Source of the DNA: a virus | Strand: one strand, 5' to 3' | DNA length: 29,972 nt | Virus record (IMG/VR): IMGVR_UViG_3300031964_000784 | Position numbers and translations under genes: made by a program | Part shown: one piece after another, positions 18,284-29,972 of the stretch | Position numbering within the stretch: position 1 is the stretch's first letter | How the letters are laid out: every line of letters begins with the position of its first letter | Notes under the pieces: generated by a model | What the model was told of the DNA's origin: nothing | The model's database searches: none | What the model saw: the letters and a program-made list of their open reading frames with translations, nothing else

Positions 18284-18413
18284 CAAGTGGGTGGGGCCGG
18301 CGCCTCATTCACTTGGGAATGCCACGCTTAACATAAAGTCTTATCTATAATAAAGAAGTACAGATTTAAAGAAATACAGAATATACGCGGAGAGAGGCGG
18401 TTCCCAAGTGAAT
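18284..18413 (+). promoter_or_regulatory. Structured intergenic region: alternative inverted repeats around an AT-rich tandem repeat
   Basis: 18284-97 pairs with 18302-15; 18307-19 is the exact reverse complement of 18401-13; 16-bp tandem repeat at 18351-82. Confidence 0.6.
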
Positions 18414-19133
18414 CAAGTGGAAGAGAAAGACACGCACGGCCCCTATTTTGGGTCGGAGCTAACCCGGAGTGAATGTGATGTGCTGGCGATAGCGAACATC
18501 GGCGTCAAGCTGCGGGATCGCGAGCAGGCGCTCATGAAGGATAAATGGTTCGACTACCGGCCCATGCACCCGACCCAGGCGACATACCTGTTTGCGCATC
18601 ATTTCAACAGGGCGTACGGCAACTTCATGAATGTCGGGTACGGCAAGGGCGGCGGCTTCATGGCGTCATTCAAGGGCAAAGACTTCATACAGGTGCGGGA
18701 GAAAACGTCGTTCTGGAGTCTTCGTCAAAAGGTCGACGAGCTTGGCGTGCGATACGACTTCTTTTGCCGCAAAGCGATGGATTGGCACCTTGAGCGCGGC
18801 TGGCGACGGCCGCCGCGCCCTTGTCATGTGGTCAACAACAACGACATGATCGTGTATGTCATGAACGCGTGGGCGGAAGAGTGCGCCAGTAAGATCCAGT
18901 TTGCCAAATCGTCGCGCTTTACCGCCGCGCAACACGTCGGCGGCGAAGATCAGCTTGCGTACGAGGATTTCATCGTCGAGCAGATCAAACGCAAACAACA
19001 TCCTAAATTCGCTCTGTACAGTGCGTTATATGTGCATGACGCAATTCGCATTGAGACAGCAATGCTGCACTTTTCTGAGGAGGTTATCTGCGAGGCCCGT
19101 GAATACAATAATTCACTTTCTCAAGAAAGATAA
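18408..19133 (+). CDS. Hypothetical protein heading the replication block
   Basis: 241 aa; GTG start after GAGAGG; aromatic/basic globular sequence; no motif recognised. Confidence 0.65.
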   Translation: MNQVEEKDTHGPYFGSELTRSECDVLAIANIGVKLRDREQALMKDKWFDYRPMHPTQATYLFAHHFNRAYGNFMNVGYGKGGGFMASFKGKDFIQVREKTSFWSLRQKVDELGVRYDFFCRKAMDWHLERGWRRPPRPCHVVNNNDMIVYVMNAWAEECASKIQFAKSSRFTAAQHVGGEDQLAYEDFIVEQIKRKQHPKFALYSALYVHDAIRIETAMLHFSEEVICEAREYNNSLSQER

Positions 19134-19152
19134 GTAAGTGGTGAGCTATAAT
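19131..19152 (+). promoter_or_regulatory. Degenerate palindrome copy overlapping a TATAAT upstream of the Hfq-like gene
   Basis: TAAGTAA-GTGG-TGAGCTA (19131-48); TATAAT 19147-52; no good -35. Confidence 0.5.
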
Positions 19153-19198
19153 TGAATTGTTCGAGTGAATAAGCAATCAGCAAATTACCAGGAGATTT

Positions 19199-19609
19199 AT
19201 GTTTTCAGCCTCAAAAACGCTACACGACAGCGTAGAACGTCAGCAGCAAATCGAAGAGGGCGCACGTCTGGCTCGTGAAGAGGGTGTCACGCCGGTATTG
19301 CAACGTACGACGCTAAAGCTGAAATCTGGCGCCCGTTCGTCTGCGGCACCAAAGAAGGAGCAGCCGAAGGGTCATGAAGCATTCTTGAAAGCGCTGGAGA
19401 CTTCCGGTGCATCAATTATCGTCGAGAAGTGCGACGGTACGGTAGTAAAGGGAGTCGTAAAGCATTCCGACAAGTACACCATCACGCTGCGCGCCCCAAT
19501 CAACGGCGCACCAGAAATGACAATTGATCGTGTCGTCTTCAAGCATGACATCAGCGAGTTCTCACCGGCAACGCCACGCCCAGCAGTCAAGGAAGAAGCA
19601 TGTCTGTAG
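19199..19609 (+). CDS. Hfq-like Sm-fold protein with N-terminal extension
   Basis: HEAFLKAL..DGTVVKGVVKHSDKYTITL (Sm1) and VVFKHDISEFSP (Sm2; compare Hfq MVYKHAISTVVP); SD AGGAG. Confidence 0.8.
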   Translation: MFSASKTLHDSVERQQQIEEGARLAREEGVTPVLQRTTLKLKSGARSSAAPKKEQPKGHEAFLKALETSGASIIVEKCDGTVVKGVVKHSDKYTITLRAPINGAPEMTIDRVVFKHDISEFSPATPRPAVKEEACL

Positions 19610-21051
19610 CAGCGGTAGAGGCAGAAGACGCGGTAGCCGCAATGATCGGCTCGGCCTATTCCCTCACCGCGTCGGCCCCAGGCGTAACGATCGAGGCGGA
19701 CAAGTTCGACTTCGGTGCTGAGTTCCAGACCAAGATCGCCACGCATGTCATGCGTGACATCGGCTTTATGCGCAAGGTTGGGCATCTGGTAATGCCAGAC
19801 TACTTCGAAAACGTGGGAGAGGCGGCTATCGTCAATCTTGCGCTGAAGTATTTCAAGAAATACAACGAGGTGCCAGAGGCGAAAGTCGCGATTCAGTTGG
19901 TCAGGGATGCGAAGACGGATAAGACGATTCGCGGCGACGACCTGGCACTGGCTGGCGAAGCAATGCGGGCCGTATTCAGCAAAGACGCAAGTATCGGCAA
20001 TAGCGACAGCATGGCCGAATCGGTCGCGTCGTTTGCTCGGTATCAAGCAATGTCGGCGGCGATCTTGAAGTCAGCAGAAATGCTCGACAGCAAGATCAAT
20101 AAGGACGAAAAGTTCAAGAAGATCGAGGCGTCGATCAAGCTGGCCGCGTCTGTCGGCATGAACGTCGACGGCGAAGAGTACGACTACTTCGAAAGAATTA
20201 CCGAGCGCACCAGAGAGCGCCAGGAGAAGACAGTGGCGGGCGCGGTGCCGGCCGGAATCACAACCGGCAACATTCAAATCGACAACCTCCTGTACCACAA
20301 GGGTTGGGGGCGTCGAGAACTATCCGTCATTATGGGCGGCGCCAAGTCGGGTAAAACGACCGCATTGCTGCATTTTGGGAAGTGCGCCGCGCTGTCGGGC
20401 CGCAATGTGCTGTATGTGACGTGCGAAGTCGCCGGCAAGATCCTTGCGGAGCGTCTGGACGCGTCGATTTCAGGTATCGCGGTCAAGCAGCTTGAACTGA
20501 AGATCCATGATGTCGAAGACGTGATTCTCAAGCTGCCGAAACATGGCGCATTGAAGATTCACGAATACCCAAGCGGCACGCTGACGCCAGCAATGCTCAA
20601 TGCGCTGATTCAGCGTTACAAGTCGCCACGGTTGAACGCGGACGGATCAACGGCGCCGGCAATCGTATTCGACATGGTAGTGGTCGATTACGCCGACATC
20701 ATGTCGCCGGACTTCCGCACCAATGACGCTATCGAGAATTCCAAGAACATCTGGCTCGGTCTGCGCGCGATTGCGTTCGAAGAAAATCTCGCCATGCTGA
20801 CTGCCACGCAAACCAATCGCGAAGGCAATAAGTCGGCGGTGGCAAAGGCGACAGACGTAGCGGAAGACTTCAACAAGATTCGGACAGCCGATATTGTGAT
20901 TTCGATCAACGCGACAGATGAAGAGCGTGCGGCCGGTGAAGCGCGCCTGTACTTCGCGGCGTCACGTAACCAGGAGTCGGGCTTTACGATCTTCATTAAG
21001 CAGGCGCTGTCCATGATGCGCTTCATCACTTCGATCATCAAGGTGGAGTGA
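19600..21051 (+). CDS. Replicative DNA helicase, DnaB/T4 gp41-like (SF4)
   Basis: GITTG, Walker A GGAKSGKT, NVLYVTCE, IHEYPSG, Walker B VVVDYAD, TATQTNR, VAEDF. Confidence 0.9.
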   Translation: MSVAAVEAEDAVAAMIGSAYSLTASAPGVTIEADKFDFGAEFQTKIATHVMRDIGFMRKVGHLVMPDYFENVGEAAIVNLALKYFKKYNEVPEAKVAIQLVRDAKTDKTIRGDDLALAGEAMRAVFSKDASIGNSDSMAESVASFARYQAMSAAILKSAEMLDSKINKDEKFKKIEASIKLAASVGMNVDGEEYDYFERITERTRERQEKTVAGAVPAGITTGNIQIDNLLYHKGWGRRELSVIMGGAKSGKTTALLHFGKCAALSGRNVLYVTCEVAGKILAERLDASISGIAVKQLELKIHDVEDVILKLPKHGALKIHEYPSGTLTPAMLNALIQRYKSPRLNADGSTAPAIVFDMVVVDYADIMSPDFRTNDAIENSKNIWLGLRAIAFEENLAMLTATQTNREGNKSAVAKATDVAEDFNKIRTADIVISINATDEERAAGEARLYFAASRNQESGFTIFIKQALSMMRFITSIIKVE

Positions 21052-22145
21052 TGCACGACAACGAAGAACTTGACGAGGCGATACGCTCCATCGATATCGA
21101 GAATTGGCTCGATCAGGAGGGTGTTGACTATCGTCAGGCGCGCGGGTCGAGCGGGCGTCAGGCAAACATCAAGACGTGCCCATGCTGCGGCAATTCGAAG
21201 TGGAAGGTCTACGTCGGATTGGAATCTGGGCTAGGCAACTGCTTTGTGTGCGAAATGAAGTACAACAAGTTTTCCTTCATTCGGGCGCAGCTCGGCGTGT
21301 CGGGCAAGGATACGGTCGAGCATATCAAGGCGTTTGCGCGCGAACAGGGCTGGAGACCGGCAAAGCGAATTGGTGCGGCGGTCAGCTTGTCGCATGCCAG
21401 TTTGAAGCTGCCGGCGTCCATCGCCTTGCCGCATGAAGGGCGAAACCTGAAGTACCTGGAGAACCGGAATATCACGGCTGATGTTGCCAAGTATTTCGCG
21501 TTCCGATTCTCGCAGAAGGGTAAGTTCAACTATGAGGATGACAAGCACCGCAAGCTGTTCCAGGACTACAGCAACCGGATCATTATTCCGGTCTTTGACC
21601 TGGAAGGCGATCTGGTCAGCTTCCAGGGTCGCGACATCACCGGCAGGGCGGAAAAGAAATACTTGTTCCCGCCCGGCTTCGCGTCTACCGGCAAGCATCT
21701 GTACAACGGCCACAACGCGGTCGGCGCGGCGCGTATCGTGATCGGGGAGGGGGTATTCGACGTGGCGGCAACAAAGATCGCTCTGGACGGTGATATGGCC
21801 CTGCGTGATGTTGTTCCGGTCGGCAGCTTCGGCAAGCACCTGTCGCACGGCGACGAAGATAGCCAACTCGCCAAGATCATGCGGCTGAAAGAGAAGGGGC
21901 TGAAGGAAGTAACGATCATGTGGGACGCCGAGACTGCCGCGCTGGTTGCCGCTGTCGAGACTGGTATGAGGTTGATTGGCTGCGGGATACGAACGCGCAT
22001 TGCTGTTCTGCCGGCGGGTTGCGATCCAAATGAGACTTCGGCAGCGAACGTGCGCGATGCATTCTGGAAAGCGGAAGTGGTCACTCCAATGATGGCGACA
22101 CGATTGCGGTTACAGGCAAATCGATTAGGCAAGGTTGCAGCATAA
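21051..22145 (+). CDS. DNA primase (Zn-binding domain plus TOPRIM); alternative GTG start at 21048
   Basis: CPCC..CFVC; YLENRNI, RIIIPVFD, FQGRDI, KKY, EGVFD, MWDAE, DPNE. Confidence 0.88.
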   Translation: MHDNEELDEAIRSIDIENWLDQEGVDYRQARGSSGRQANIKTCPCCGNSKWKVYVGLESGLGNCFVCEMKYNKFSFIRAQLGVSGKDTVEHIKAFAREQGWRPAKRIGAAVSLSHASLKLPASIALPHEGRNLKYLENRNITADVAKYFAFRFSQKGKFNYEDDKHRKLFQDYSNRIIIPVFDLEGDLVSFQGRDITGRAEKKYLFPPGFASTGKHLYNGHNAVGAARIVIGEGVFDVAATKIALDGDMALRDVVPVGSFGKHLSHGDEDSQLAKIMRLKEKGLKEVTIMWDAETAALVAAVETGMRLIGCGIRTRIAVLPAGCDPNETSAANVRDAFWKAEVVTPMMATRLRLQANRLGKVAA

Positions 22146-22194: not shown

Positions 22195-22227
22195 TCGGTC
22201 AAGCGCACAGTGCGCGGGAGACGTTGG

Positions 22228-22710
22228 ATGTATGAGATTACGACAAACTTTTTAGAGCATGACGGCGGCACAAAGTTTTACGAAACGGTGCGGATCAAGG
22301 TTGTGTCGGACGACCGAACCATTTTGATTAAGCGGTACGGTTCGATGAAGCAAAAGAACGGCGGCGGCGCAACAAAGATCGAGCGCTATAGCAACAGCGC
22401 TGACGCCACGAGGGCGAATTTTGCAATCGTGAAAGAGAAGACCACGCCTCGCACTGGTAAGGGGCAGTACCTAATATCGTCGTTTCCGTTGCATGGCTTT
22501 CACGTTCACAACGGGAAGCCGCCAATTTCGACTGATTCAGTTATCGACACGGTGCGCTACCACTACGCGGACAAGGAAACGAGCGAGGCGATCACGGCAT
22601 ATCTCAGCGTTGACGCCATGCGAGTTTGGATCGACGAGGCGATAGGTATTGTAGATACAACAAAAGACGAAGCGCCAGTAGATCGAGGCGGTTCATGGGC
22701 AAGCTGGTAA
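22228..22710 (+). CDS. WGR-domain-like protein
   Basis: ATG 22228 after GGGAG; TKFY..IKRYGS..IVKEK..KGQY resembles the WGR pattern. Confidence 0.5.
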   Translation: MYEITTNFLEHDGGTKFYETVRIKVVSDDRTILIKRYGSMKQKNGGGATKIERYSNSADATRANFAIVKEKTTPRTGKGQYLISSFPLHGFHVHNGKPPISTDSVIDTVRYHYADKETSEAITAYLSVDAMRVWIDEAIGIVDTTKDEAPVDRGGSWASW

Positions 22711-27521: not shown

Positions 27522-27613
27522 TAAGTAATTGATTTTAAATGATTACCAGCGGCCTGCAAAGCCGTGTAGACCGGTTCGACTCCGGTCCCCGCCTCCATAA
27601 TATCAAGGACTTA
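27522..27613. repeat. Imperfect 16-bp inverted repeats flanking the att core
   Basis: TAAGTAATTGATTTTA (27522-37) vs reverse complement of 27598-613, TAAGTCCTTGATATTA (13/16). Confidence 0.6.
27547..27597 (+). other. Attachment-site core: 3' part of tRNA-Cys(GCA), not an intact tRNA
   Basis: Anticodon arm GCGGC-CTGCAAA-GCCGT, T arm ACCGG-TTCGACT-CCGGT, acceptor 3' strand CCCCGCC-T-CCA; no D arm or 5' acceptor strand. Confidence 0.88.
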
Positions 27614-27730
27614 GCCCATGCTGGGCTAGTTCAAGGTGGTTTGGCGCTAGTTCGCCAATGTGGTAATACCCCCTTGAAACGGCCAATTTGCCGTAGACAG
27701 TCTGAAAGCTCGTCGACACCATACTTAATT

Positions 27731-28834
27731 ATGTCGACGATAAAATCATTCCCAAACGGGAAATTCCAATTACGTGTTACGAACAAATCACTCGATAAGC
27801 CGTTCTATGCGACTTTCGAATCTCGCGAGCAGGCACTTGCTTACGGTGCGCAGCTAGAAGGTTTGTTGGCACAGGGAATTGTTCCGACCTTCCTTCTTGA
27901 TCGTAAGCACGGTCTGGAGACTTGGACGATATCCCGATGCATGAACGAATACCTGCGTGATAATTCTGTTCCCGTTTCCGATGTCAAATTGCTGCATACT
28001 ATTCGCCCCTCATTGCTTACCTGCACAACCGGTTTTTTGAATTACGATTGGGCGGAGGGATGGATCCGTGAAATGAAACGAGTCCAGAATCTTTCCCCTT
28101 CTACGATTCGACACCGGCACGGTGCCCTCGCGCGTTGCTTCGATTGGATGATCAGAAAACATCCCGACATCATGGCGCAAAACCCATTGCGTCTTCTCAA
28201 GCGTGGTTTTGCTTCCTATACGGAAGAGGATAGTCAACTCCTCATTGCCATTGGTAAGAAACCTAAATTCGACGTGGAACGTGATCGGCGTCTCGATACC
28301 GATGAAGAAAAACGCATCCTAAAAATTCTGGGGAACACGCCGGACGAAAAAGTCTTCTTCATTCTTGCTCTCGAGACGGCCATGCGTATGCGAGAATGCT
28401 ATACGCTTAGCGTCGATCAGGTTAGCCTGATAAAAAAGACCATTCATCTTGAGCGCAGTAAAAATGGCGACAATCGACAGGTGCCGCTTTCAAGCACCGC
28501 CATCGCGTTATTGGATGACTATCTGAGAATTCATGCAAAAGGAATCAAGGGGAGGGAGGGGCGGTTATTCCCGTTTTGGAACGGCAGCCGGAATGAGCGT
28601 GAACTCGACATTACGACAAGCGATTTGTCGCGTACGTTCAGAGGTATCTTTATAGACTCAGAGGTCGTTGATCTGCATTTCCATGATCTTCGGCATGAGG
28701 CTACCTGCAGATTGTATGAAAAGACCAAGCTGTCCGACGTTTTGATATCAAAGATTACCGGTCATCGGGACGTCAGGATGTTGCAACGTTACGCAAGCTT
28801 GCGTGGGAGCGATCTGGCCATTCATCTTTGGTAA
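27731..28834 (+). CDS. int: Tyrosine recombinase / integrase
   Basis: LALETAMRMRE (R), SKNG (K), FHDLRHEA (HxxR), ITGHRD (H), LQRY (Y); next to the tRNA fragment; ATG 27731 preferred over 27539. Confidence 0.92.
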   Translation: MSTIKSFPNGKFQLRVTNKSLDKPFYATFESREQALAYGAQLEGLLAQGIVPTFLLDRKHGLETWTISRCMNEYLRDNSVPVSDVKLLHTIRPSLLTCTTGFLNYDWAEGWIREMKRVQNLSPSTIRHRHGALARCFDWMIRKHPDIMAQNPLRLLKRGFASYTEEDSQLLIAIGKKPKFDVERDRRLDTDEEKRILKILGNTPDEKVFFILALETAMRMRECYTLSVDQVSLIKKTIHLERSKNGDNRQVPLSSTAIALLDDYLRIHAKGIKGREGRLFPFWNGSRNERELDITTSDLSRTFRGIFIDSEVVDLHFHDLRHEATCRLYEKTKLSDVLISKITGHRDVRMLQRYASLRGSDLAIHLW

Positions 28835-28955: not shown

Positions 28956-29972
28956 TTATCGACCTGCGGCATTGGCCTTCTGTTGTATGACCCGACAGCG
29001 TTCCAGCAATGTGTCGAACGGTTCAGGGTCATCAAGGAACAATCCGTCATCAATCATGTGTTGATAGTCCGCTGACAATTTCACCAGTGCACCATCGCCA
29101 GGGATAAGTTGCAGGGCGCCCGATACCGCCGCTCGATAATCGATGACGTCACCTTGCGTGTTTTTCTCCGCAAAGAAAGCACTTTTGTGTTCGGCTACCG
29201 CGCTAGCGAGTGCTGTGTCAGCGATGGCAGCATCTACGAAGCCGGCAGCATCCAGTTGAGATACGTCATGCCAGTGACGCGCGAAGCGCTCGCCGCCACG
29301 GAATGCGCCTTGTGCGCAAAACACGTGAATTGCCGTCGCCTTTTCCCTGAATGTGCGTTCAGCACGCATGACTTGTGGCGTAGCGGTTGGAAACTCTATT
29401 CCTGGCAGATAAGCAGCTGCATCGCAGCGTATAGCGCGCGGTTCGCTAGGCTCTCCGGTTGAGCGGGCACCAAACTCCAACATGACTGTAGAGGCGACAT
29501 AGCCGGTGCCTTTTGCTAACGGTATGTAATCGATGAATACGTTGTCGTTTTCAGATCGCACGGTTGCCGGTAATCCCGAGTGCTCAAGATCCTGCTTGAG
29601 TCGAGGCGCGATCTCTGCGTCGACCCAGCCAGCGAGGCGTGTTCGAATTTCCTTGCTCCATCTCTTCTCTTGGCTCTTGGTGACCGGCAAAGGCGAATCC
29701 GCCTCGCCCACAATGTCGGCAGCGATCGCACGGATATCGTAAGTCCAATCCACGTCCTCGGAAAAGCGTTGGATGACACCGTAAGCCTTCGATAGCGAGG
29801 TGCCGCCCTTGAATACCAAGTGGTCAGCGTATGGTCCGGTAAAGAGGTGCCGCAATGTCCAGACCACCCAAACGTCTTTCTCCAAAAGATGCGGCAAAAG
29901 GCCCGATGTGCTGGCGGCCGCGTCGAGGGCGTCCAAGCGTTCGGTCGTAGATAGCTTAAAGAACTCAGTCAT
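28956..29972 (-). CDS. AbiEii/AbiGii-family nucleotidyltransferase (type IV TA / abortive infection toxin)
   Basis: LEKDVWV, FKGGTSLSKAY, RFSEDVD, LEFG.RS, EK, RHWHD; any partner antitoxin would lie beyond the window. Confidence 0.9.
   Translation of the reverse strand: MTEFFKLSTTERLDALDAAASTSGLLPHLLEKDVWVVWTLRHLFTGPYADHLVFKGGTSLSKAYGVIQRFSEDVDWTYDIRAIAADIVGEADSPLPVTKSQEKRWSKEIRTRLAGWVDAEIAPRLKQDLEHSGLPATVRSENDNVFIDYIPLAKGTGYVASTVMLEFGARSTGEPSEPRAIRCDAAAYLPGIEFPTATPQVMRAERTFREKATAIHVFCAQGAFRGGERFARHWHDVSQLDAAGFVDAAIADTALASAVAEHKSAFFAEKNTQGDVIDYRAAVSGALQLIPGDGALVKLSADYQHMIDDGLFLDDPEPFDTLLERCRVIQQKANAAGR

Follow-up and report, generated by a model that had tools for sequence, protein, structure and literature searches.

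Many bacteria rely on Hfq as their central RNA matchmaker, hence the interest of a relative that is encoded by a phage. In the proteobacterial protein, RNA annealing is driven by the rim arginines R16, R17, and R19 (Hfq residues are given here in E. coli numbering), and the Hfq proteins of Gram-positive bacteria lack this triple-arginine patch. Extra Hfq proteins beyond the housekeeping copy include Hfq3 of the Bacillus anthracis plasmid pXO1, a mobile element, and Hfq2 of Burkholderia; both have near-canonical sequences and, to our knowledge, no link to replication genes. On plasmids of Thermococcus and Methanocaldococcus, genes for zinc-finger/Hfq-like proteins lie directly downstream of a helicase gene, apparently in one transcription unit, and a role in replication was speculated for them by the authors who described them (PMC3543421). 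The Sm/Hfq fold is also predicted for small proteins of the Mycobacterium phages Tonenili and Phabba (annotated as ‘Hfq-like domain-containing protein’) and for gp39 of Adephagia (PMC11373665). In this study, we analyzed a stretch of 29,972 nucleotides (the window) of the IMG/VR virus record IMGVR_UViG_3300031964_000784, which is part of a 35-kb provirus record from a soil prophage, judged 32% complete. It contains a gene for an Hfq-like protein, here called HfqL, that directly precedes the gene of a DnaB-type replicative helicase.

Among bacterial Hfq proteins, those of the Gram-positive type are especially close to HfqL. Hfq from S. aureus (PDB 1KQ1 and 1KQ2) and B. subtilis (3AHU and 3HSB) are its best PDB profile matches and have the same Sm fold with an N-terminal helix and an Sm2 motif of the form [YF]KH.I. 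Like them, HfqL has no triple-arginine rim patch, and with S. aureus Hfq it shares a D-K-Y triplet before strand 3. In contrast to these proteins, HfqL has a His for Gln8, an acidic residue at the R16 position, Glu-Arg-Glu for the distal aromatic pocket, a long and variable loop L4, and an acidic core, and it carries a 57-residue N-terminal extension (a helix and a basic arm) where Hfq has a C-terminal tail. Its genomic setting is also different, as HfqL belongs to a phage replication block, whereas the hfq gene of Massilia, the likely host, apparently lies beside hflX (a candidate assignment, based on a GTPase-like open reading frame whose motifs were recognized by eye).

The archaeal plasmid proteins resemble HfqL in having an Hfq-like domain, an N-terminal extension, and a place on a mobile element beside a helicase gene (PMC3543421). 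However, they contain a C2H2 zinc finger and are encoded downstream of a non-DnaB helicase, whereas HfqL is bacterial, has a helix and a basic arm, and is encoded upstream of DnaB. Its first 57 residues include no Cys and only one His (H9), so that an N-terminal C2H2 zinc finger is absent. The mycobacteriophage proteins are similar to HfqL at the level of the fold only and do not occur in the HfqL gene context, but gp117 of the Pseudomonas phage nickie is a true HfqL homologue in the same slot. All Nickievirus phages carry this form, which is 89 residues long and gives an hhalign probability of 92.7%.

Fold of HfqL and its counterparts of the RNA-binding faces of Hfq

HfqL truly has the Hfq/Sm fold, although in a divergent form, and the similarity is far beyond chance. 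The Pfam Hfq model (PF17209) matches amino acids (aa) 60-126 with an E value of 1.5e-6, a marginal pass at 28.2 bits against a gathering cut-off of 27, and 31 of 32 relatives match it on their own at E <= 0.01, the best of them at 1.2e-10. When HfqL alone was aligned by HMMER with Hfq chains of solved structure, the scores were weak (E 0.2-0.8), but the alignments run ungapped over aa 60-98 and then, after an insertion of seven residues, into the Sm2 motif. With a profile of the 32 relatives, the best match was S. aureus Hfq (E 3.1e-9), the next B. subtilis Hfq (3.1e-8), and about 30 further Hfq entries of the PDB came after them. The AlphaFold2 (AF2) model, calculated from the alignment of relatives, has a mean predicted local distance difference test (pLDDT) value of 80, and of more than 90 in the Sm core. 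It shows a separate N-terminal helix (aa 9-27), a linker of low confidence, and then a helix (aa 58-69) and five strands, which is the order of α-helix and five-stranded bent β-sheet that characterizes the Sm fold. When this model was compared with the PDB by Foldseek, the top 50 matches were all Hfq chains, with target template-modelling (TM) scores of 0.8-0.9 and a maximum of 0.91. Searches of Pfam, PDB sequences, and Foldseek gave Hfq-family matches only, and the Hfq-like identity put forward in a preliminary description of this DNA is therefore borne out.

In NCBIfam, the Hfq matches of HfqL were all below threshold, as the protein scored 19.3 bits against a cut-off of 61.7 (the TIGR02383/NF001602 set) and 20.2 against 95 for the Hfq equivalogs. 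Judged by its sequence, HfqL is not the housekeeping Hfq chaperone. In PHROGs it belongs to phrog_5258, a family of unknown function. An Hfq label is already found in automatic annotation, in names given by JGI and NCBI and in phage Nican01, which denotes its HfqL as ‘hfq’. Full-text literature searches did not return any work on the function of Hfq-like proteins from phages, nor any mention of the protein of this lineage. The family itself is large: a word-index search gave 162 homologues, and an exhaustive profile search gave 747 clusters with a threshold of E <= 1e-3, of which 257 remained when it was set to E <= 1e-10. Residue conservation was counted in an alignment of 120 family sequences, with lower denominators at some positions. 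The strand-4/strand-5 interface motif is conserved among them, which is only suggestive of a homohexameric ring.

The preliminary description had also mapped HfqL residue by residue onto E. coli Hfq, and the HMMER alignments agree with it at each position. Kept residues are F62 (F11), L63 (L12), G80 (G29), G85 (G34), D91 (D40), and Y93 (F42), and, after the long loop, F114 (Y55), K115 (K56), H116 (H57), I118 (I59), and S119 (S60). Changed residues are H59 (Q8), E67, T68, and G70 (R16, R17, and R19), E76 (Y25), T81 (I30), and V82 (K31). The claim drawn from this map, that the RNA-binding faces are rewired, holds for two of the three faces. The rim and the distal face have indeed changed, and the changes are conserved in the family. 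The proximal face, in contrast, is nearly invariant and of the S. aureus type; only Q8 differs there, and it is replaced by an invariant His.

Across the 120 sequences, this proximal (pore) face is formed by the nearly invariant residues G58, H59, E60, F62, L63, F114, K115, and H116; L66, G85, and D91 are further invariant residues of the core. K92 is found in 114 of 120 sequences and an aromatic residue at position 93 in 119 of 120. The Sm2 motif, [YF]-K-H-[AS]-[IV] in Hfq, is represented by F114, K115, H116, D117, and I118, with the lysine in 119/119 and the histidine in 118/119 members. S. aureus Hfq has the same residues as HfqL at the triplet D91-K92-Y93, and its structure was solved in complex with U-rich RNA (PDB 1KQ2, according to the title of the entry). 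At the positions of the proximal uridine pocket of Hfq (Q8, Q41/K41, F42/Y42, K56, and H57), HfqL has K92, Y93, K115, and H116 as in S. aureus Hfq, but the invariant His in the place of Q8.

On the rim, the arginine patch is absent. A Glu occupies the R16 position in 110 of 120 sequences, and basic residues are lacking from the rest of the rim in the family. The distal A-R-N site (Y25, I30, K31, Q52, and T61) is likewise absent, its positions being occupied by E76, T81, V82, R111, and E120. Here, Glu replaces the distal aromatic Y25 in 97 of 120 sequences, positions 81, 82, and 84 (equivalent to I30, K31, and Q33) vary freely, and R111 and E120 are conserved, a pattern from which we infer that the distal pocket has been turned into a charged Glu-Arg-Glu surface. 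The HfqL family thus appears, from its sequences, to be a new and large phage-specific Hfq subfamily in which one face is kept and two are replaced.

A second departure from Hfq concerns the distribution of charge. The Sm core of HfqL has a net charge of -1 and an isoelectric point (pI) of 6.3, compared with +2 and 9.2 for the Hfq core of the likely host. The 22 residues that precede the core, disordered in the model (pLDDT 53-55), have a net charge of +6, both in HfqL and as the median of the 120 sequences. The basic charge of the rim may therefore have been relocated onto six flexible N-terminal arms, and such a relocated arm would be a new feature among Hfq proteins. The helix further upstream carries R14 in 102 of 114 and Q17 in 109 of 113 sequences, both together in 98 of 120. 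However, the short forms of the family (88-111 residues) do not have this helix, and it is therefore regarded as accessory. Loop L4 is variable, its segment ranging from 5 to 23 residues in the family.

The replication block and its distribution

HfqL is a fixed component of the phrog_2500-HfqL-DnaB-DnaG replication block of this phage lineage. A search of IMG/VR with the HfqL profile yielded 68 loci. In all of them, the Hfq-like gene adjoins the helicase gene of its element, and the genes follow the same order as far as the contig reaches: metallophosphoesterase, PhoH, phrog_2500, HfqL, DnaB, primase, WGR protein, orf236, and ligase. Conversely, when loci were collected with phrog_2500 as the seed, HfqL was found in the slot in 70 of the 73 that have dnaB, and the other three have a gap of 96 nt. 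On every contig that includes both genes, dnaB starts between -11 and +24 nt from the HfqL stop, most commonly at -4 (an ATGA overlap, 21 loci). In the window the two genes overlap by 10 nt, from the dnaB ATG at 19600 to the end of the HfqL stop at 19609, exactly as reported earlier. This dnaB start is supported by the conservation of the DnaB N-terminus from its first residues, and M1 of HfqL is aligned in 117 of 120 homologues. The earlier proposal of an RNA-based replication control module is therefore right with regard to a conserved gene block, which the synteny survey established; its RNA mode found no support, as neither an Rfam family in the window nor a conserved terminator-bearing small RNA (sRNA) near HfqL came to light.

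The pairing of HfqL and helicase is seen in far more than 100 related sequences of phages and phage-plasmids. The lineage consists of siphophages of about 110 kb, prophages, and phage-plasmids, and its HfqL carriers include prophages of Burkholderiales, Pseudomonas Nickievirus, and 151 phage-plasmids of Acinetobacter. That the helicase link is invariant across prophages, phage-plasmids, and isolated Nickievirus phages is new. The same arrangement is found in a Herbaspirillum huttiense prophage, in a 113-kb Massilia contig, and in Paraburkholderia and Betaproteobacteria metagenome-assembled genomes. The Acinetobacter plasmids listed are mostly about 90-114 kb in size, and some of those from Acinetobacter baumannii are listed from clinical samples. 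In the one that we examined, the genes for the initiator RepM, phrog_2500, HfqL, DnaB, and a protein of primase size follow each other in this order. That HfqL is phage-encoded, as stated in the preliminary description, is confirmed by the provirus record, by an integrase gene in the window, and by the relationship to SSU5 and Nickievirus. GenBank phages gave no match when searched with the region by megablast or with the complete HfqL protein by tblastn, and it took DnaB and the Nickievirus protein as queries to find the relatives among them. By its DnaB, the window is closest to Pseudomonas Nickievirus, to Rhizobium and Stenotrophomonas phages, and to the SSU5 phage-plasmid group, all of about 105-120 kb.

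On the DnaB tree, the HfqL-bearing elements form one supported clade (95/97) with Nickievirus as its sister (90/84), and the elements without HfqL fall outside the HfqL clade, in a tree that has a midpoint root only. This topology fits a single gain of HfqL. We also considered a recent capture of a host hfq gene. The assembly of the Massilia strain has a related contig of about 113 kb, and the Hfq of this likely host gave no BLASTP alignment with HfqL and 30% identity by hhalign; a recent capture is therefore unlikely. In one Paraburkholderia genome, Hfq-family proteins are encoded at three loci, the canonical Hfq scoring 103.7 bits, a second match 70.7, and the prophage HfqL 33.4; we take the second to be a candidate Hfq2.

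The relative in Massilia sp. TN1-12 forms a contig of its own of 112,962 bp, about the size of a whole genome of the lineage, which fits an extrachromosomal or actively replicating element. This strain offers a cultivable host for the related phage, and the HfqL family can also be cultivated with Nickievirus in Pseudomonas syringae and with the phage-plasmids of Acinetobacter baumannii.

Possible roles of HfqL

Two lines of evidence on the function of HfqL point in different directions: its residues argue for a ring pocket kept for uridines or 3' ends, whereas its genomic position argues for replication. Loss of the rim patch and of the distal A-R-N pocket makes it improbable that HfqL is a classical matchmaker of sRNA and mRNA, and its co-production with the helicase makes an action in phage DNA replication the most likely one. 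Our preferred, still tentative reading, to which we assign a probability of about 0.4, is that HfqL may form a ring with affinity for single-stranded nucleic acid and may take part in phage replication together with the helicase-primase at the origin or the fork. HfqL would form an Hfq-type ring, and a U-rich single strand, or a 3' end, would sit in the central pocket of H59, K92, Y93, K115, and H116. Six flexible basic N-terminal arms would aid the binding in the place of the missing rim arginines. Bound in this way, the ring could aid the assembly of the helicase-primase or priming at the origin, or it could handle RNA or single strand that is formed there. HfqL was never found anywhere but in front of dnaB, and in phage-plasmids the block stands next to the initiator gene. 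We consider it less likely that HfqL regulates host RNAs in general.

Several observations weigh against a replication ring. The pocket is not universal in the family, as the Nickievirus form carries K-S instead of K-H in the Sm2 motif and the Acinetobacter form has Tyr for H59 and Ala-Glu for K92-Y93. Tight spacing of genes is common in phage operons, the dnaB and primase genes of the window overlapping as well. In SSU5 and the Rhizobium phages, phrog_2500 directly precedes dnaB and there is no room for HfqL, so the gene is not needed by such replisomes in general. Moreover, no likeness of sequence or fold to the known helicase loaders DnaC/DnaI, lambda P, SPP1 G39P, T4 gp59, or DciA was seen in Pfam, PDB sequences, or Foldseek. 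A prediction of the complex of HfqL and DnaB from two alignments had a score of 0.00, which weighs neither for nor against binding. The more specific arrangement in which an Sm hexamer would sit one-to-one with the DnaB hexamer, loading or anchoring the helicase or holding an RNA or single strand at the origin to let helicase and primase begin, and would represent a new class of helicase-associated Sm proteins, seems to us unlikely. If a replication role is true, it would link the Sm fold to bacterial DNA replication and explain the archaeal parallel; by analogy, the archaeal plasmids may have arrived independently at the same Sm solution via their zinc-finger Hfq-like proteins.

Mobile elements do carry RNA chaperones of their own, e.g., FinO, which acts with FinP, and Rom, which acts with RNA I/II. 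HfqL could similarly be the private chaperone of its element. It would bind a phage transcript, e.g., its own mRNA or the replication operon's leader, and thereby set how strongly the replication genes are expressed, without touching the replisome. The preliminary description had proposed HfqL as the chaperone of a leader switch at 18284-18413, and the present data speak neither for nor against this. The near-invariant residues of the 3'-end/uridine pocket speak for such a regulator, as do the basic disordered arms, which are typical of RNA chaperones, and an inverted repeat with a conserved CTTGGG core (described below), which in several distant relatives extends to where translation of the first gene of the block starts. 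However, this repeat could equally be a DNA site, the rim arginines and the distal mRNA site are absent, and no RNA partner came into view: a search of the whole window with Rfam found no family at threshold, and no conserved terminator was present near HfqL on either strand in 43 related loci. The intrinsic-terminator scan had given a weak antisense hairpin at 19235-19210, which was below chance expectation. Since no terminator is conserved in the 43 loci, we no longer assume a conserved small RNA, be it cis-antisense to HfqL or adjacent to it. None of the public RNA sequencing runs was listed as containing this stretch. We regard a private RNA chaperone as possible, but on the improbable side. 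If it is nevertheless true, HfqL would be a natural proximal-face-only Hfq with relocated basic arms, which would be useful for dissecting Hfq.

A further reading, in which HfqL would antagonize host Hfq by soaking up host sRNAs at the proximal face without annealing them, or by mixing into or blocking the host rings, and would so disable the riboregulation of the infected host, is quite improbable in our judgment. A kept proximal face with the rim and the distal face lost is what a non-productive binder is expected to look like, and a study of Hfq3 of pXO1 reportedly found that the Hfq of a mobile element can perturb a cell. Mixed rings, however, are unlikely at about 30% identity and no BLASTP match to the Hfq of the likely host. 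An antagonist is also at odds with a gene that keeps a fixed position inside the replication block and never occurs elsewhere, and with pocket residues that differ in the Acinetobacter and Nickievirus forms. Furthermore, HfqL is kept by long-term residents, i.e., prophages and phage-plasmids, where a loss of Hfq would be costly. Still less probable is a purely proteinaceous adaptor or loader, an Sm ring that would dock 6:6 on DnaB or on the phrog_2500 protein and bind no nucleic acid. It would fit the strict synteny and the close coupling of the HfqL stop to the start of a gene for a hexameric helicase, which all relatives show, and in SPP1 the loader gene likewise stands just before the helicase gene. 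The conserved distal cluster of E76, R111, and E120 and the N-terminal helix resemble protein-binding surfaces, and a tail motif of DnaB (SVAAMIG) is restricted to the clade with GHEAFLKAL-type HfqL. Yet the short forms do without the helix, the Acinetobacter element has HfqL but not the tail motif, the resemblance to known loaders is wanting, and the invariant Lys-His pair of the pore and the +6 arm argue that nucleic-acid binding was kept.

Features of the locus and neighboring genes

The features of the locus are collected in Table 1. A TATAAT hexamer upstream of HfqL is tentatively taken as the -10 element of an hfqL-dnaB transcript; it was not called by a consensus promoter scan because a good -35 element is absent. 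It is abutted by a degenerate copy of a dispersed palindrome, which was correctly noted in the preliminary description and which overlaps the stop codon of the upstream gene. A pattern search found nine copies of this palindrome in the window, where 0.5 are expected.

Table 1. Coordinates of features in the window, with the basis on which each was assigned.
Feature	Position	Strand	Description and basis
phrog_2500 protein	18408..19133	+	241 aa; constant upstream neighbor of HfqL; PHROG E 2e-60, synteny
Degenerate copy of dispersed 18-bp palindrome	19131..19148		TAAGTCA-N4-TGACTTA with 3 mismatches; pattern search
TATAAT hexamer	19147..19152	+	possible -10 for hfqL-dnaB transcript; 47 nt upstream of start codon
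Shine-Dalgarno-like AGGAGA of HfqL	19190..19195	+	ATG four bases downstream; read in sequence
HfqL (Hfq-like gene)	19199..19609	+	136 aa plus stop, ATG start; open reading frame list, translation, Pfam Hfq, phrog_5258
N-terminal amphipathic helix, aa 9-27	19223..19279	+	conserved R14, Q17; AF2
Disordered basic arm, aa 36-57	19304..19369	+	RRTL-like motif, then K/R/P-rich stretch; model pLDDT 53-55
Sm/Hfq core, aa 58-123	19370..19567	+	helix 58-69 (GHEAFLKALE), five strands; AF2, Foldseek, conservation
Variable loop L4, aa 99-110	19493..19528	+	7 residues longer than in cellular Hfq; PDB Hfq alignments
Sm2 motif FKHDISEF, aa 114-121	within Sm core	+	AF2, alignment
Ribosome-binding site AAGGAAG of dnaB	19589..19595	+	within hfqL 3' end; read in sequence
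DnaB-like replicative helicase	19600..21051	+	483 aa; Pfam DnaB_C, phrog_19
DnaG-type primase	21048..22145	+	overlaps dnaB stop by 4 nt; Pfam DNAG_N, phrog_47
Weak WGR-domain protein	22210..22710		follows primase
Phage integrase	27539..28834		near right end of window
AbiEii-family gene	28956..29972	-	opposite strand to integrase; right end of window

The upstream neighbor of HfqL had been called an orphan, but it belongs to phrog_2500, which is conserved as far as SSU5. This protein accompanies DnaB even in SSU5, in Rhizobium phages, and in Acinetobacter phage-plasmids, and it is a candidate for the loader or a replication organizer. Its AF2 model is all-alpha and very confident, with a pLDDT of 94 and a predicted TM score of 0.90. 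Searches of Pfam, NCBIfam, and PDB sequences and profiles gave no match and the Atlas gave no lead, and a structure search for a loader or initiator returned nothing convincing (Foldseek best E 0.9; VIA best Z 5.1 over 71 residues). As the model has no convincing structural relative, the loader or initiator of the block cannot be recognized from it.

Around the start of the phrog_2500 gene lies the inverted repeat with the CTTGGG/CCCAAG core. Its arms in the window, at 18307-18319 and 18401-18413, are 13 nt long and perfect, and the repeat is also found in distant relatives (L015, L016, L025, L034, and L042). The arms are separated by 81-95 nt of AT-rich sequence. The start codon of the phrog_2500 gene is covered by the right arm, and the flanks of the arms differ among the loci yet stay complementary. 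The repeat could be a pair of DNA sites, serving as an origin or an operator, or its arms could pair in the RNA and so mask the start codon.

Downstream of HfqL, the N-terminus of DnaB (aa 1-27, 19600-19680) bears the tail motif AE.SVAAMIG..F.G, found only in the clade with GHEAFLKAL-type HfqL. It is missing in SSU5, in Rhizobium and Stenotrophomonas phages, and in the Acinetobacter phage-plasmid, and it is different in Nickievirus; this tail may be a docking peptide. In Stenotrophomonas phage BUCTxx99 (L078, 2281-2490), the HfqL slot is occupied by an open reading frame of 69 aa that overlaps dnaB by 8 nt and has an Sm1-like pattern by eye. It was rejected as a relative of HfqL, with an hhalign probability of 0.1% and no Pfam match.

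WGR is a domain of PARP-type proteins that senses breaks in nucleic acids, and in the window it forms a stand-alone gene that precedes a DNA ligase. The call is backed by annotated WGR genes at this position in the Rhizobium phages RHEph10 and RHph_X66, and likewise by a WGR match in the Herbaspirillum prophage. At the right end of the window, the integrase and the AbiEii-family gene would mark either the prophage border or a defense cargo gene; the defense models of PADLOC gave no match. In four related loci (L042, L145, L156, and L158), the match to DnaB is interrupted for about 2.4 kb before it continues from residue 242, and in L042 the open frame extends over 937 aa. This looks like the insertion of an intein or a homing endonuclease in the helicase.

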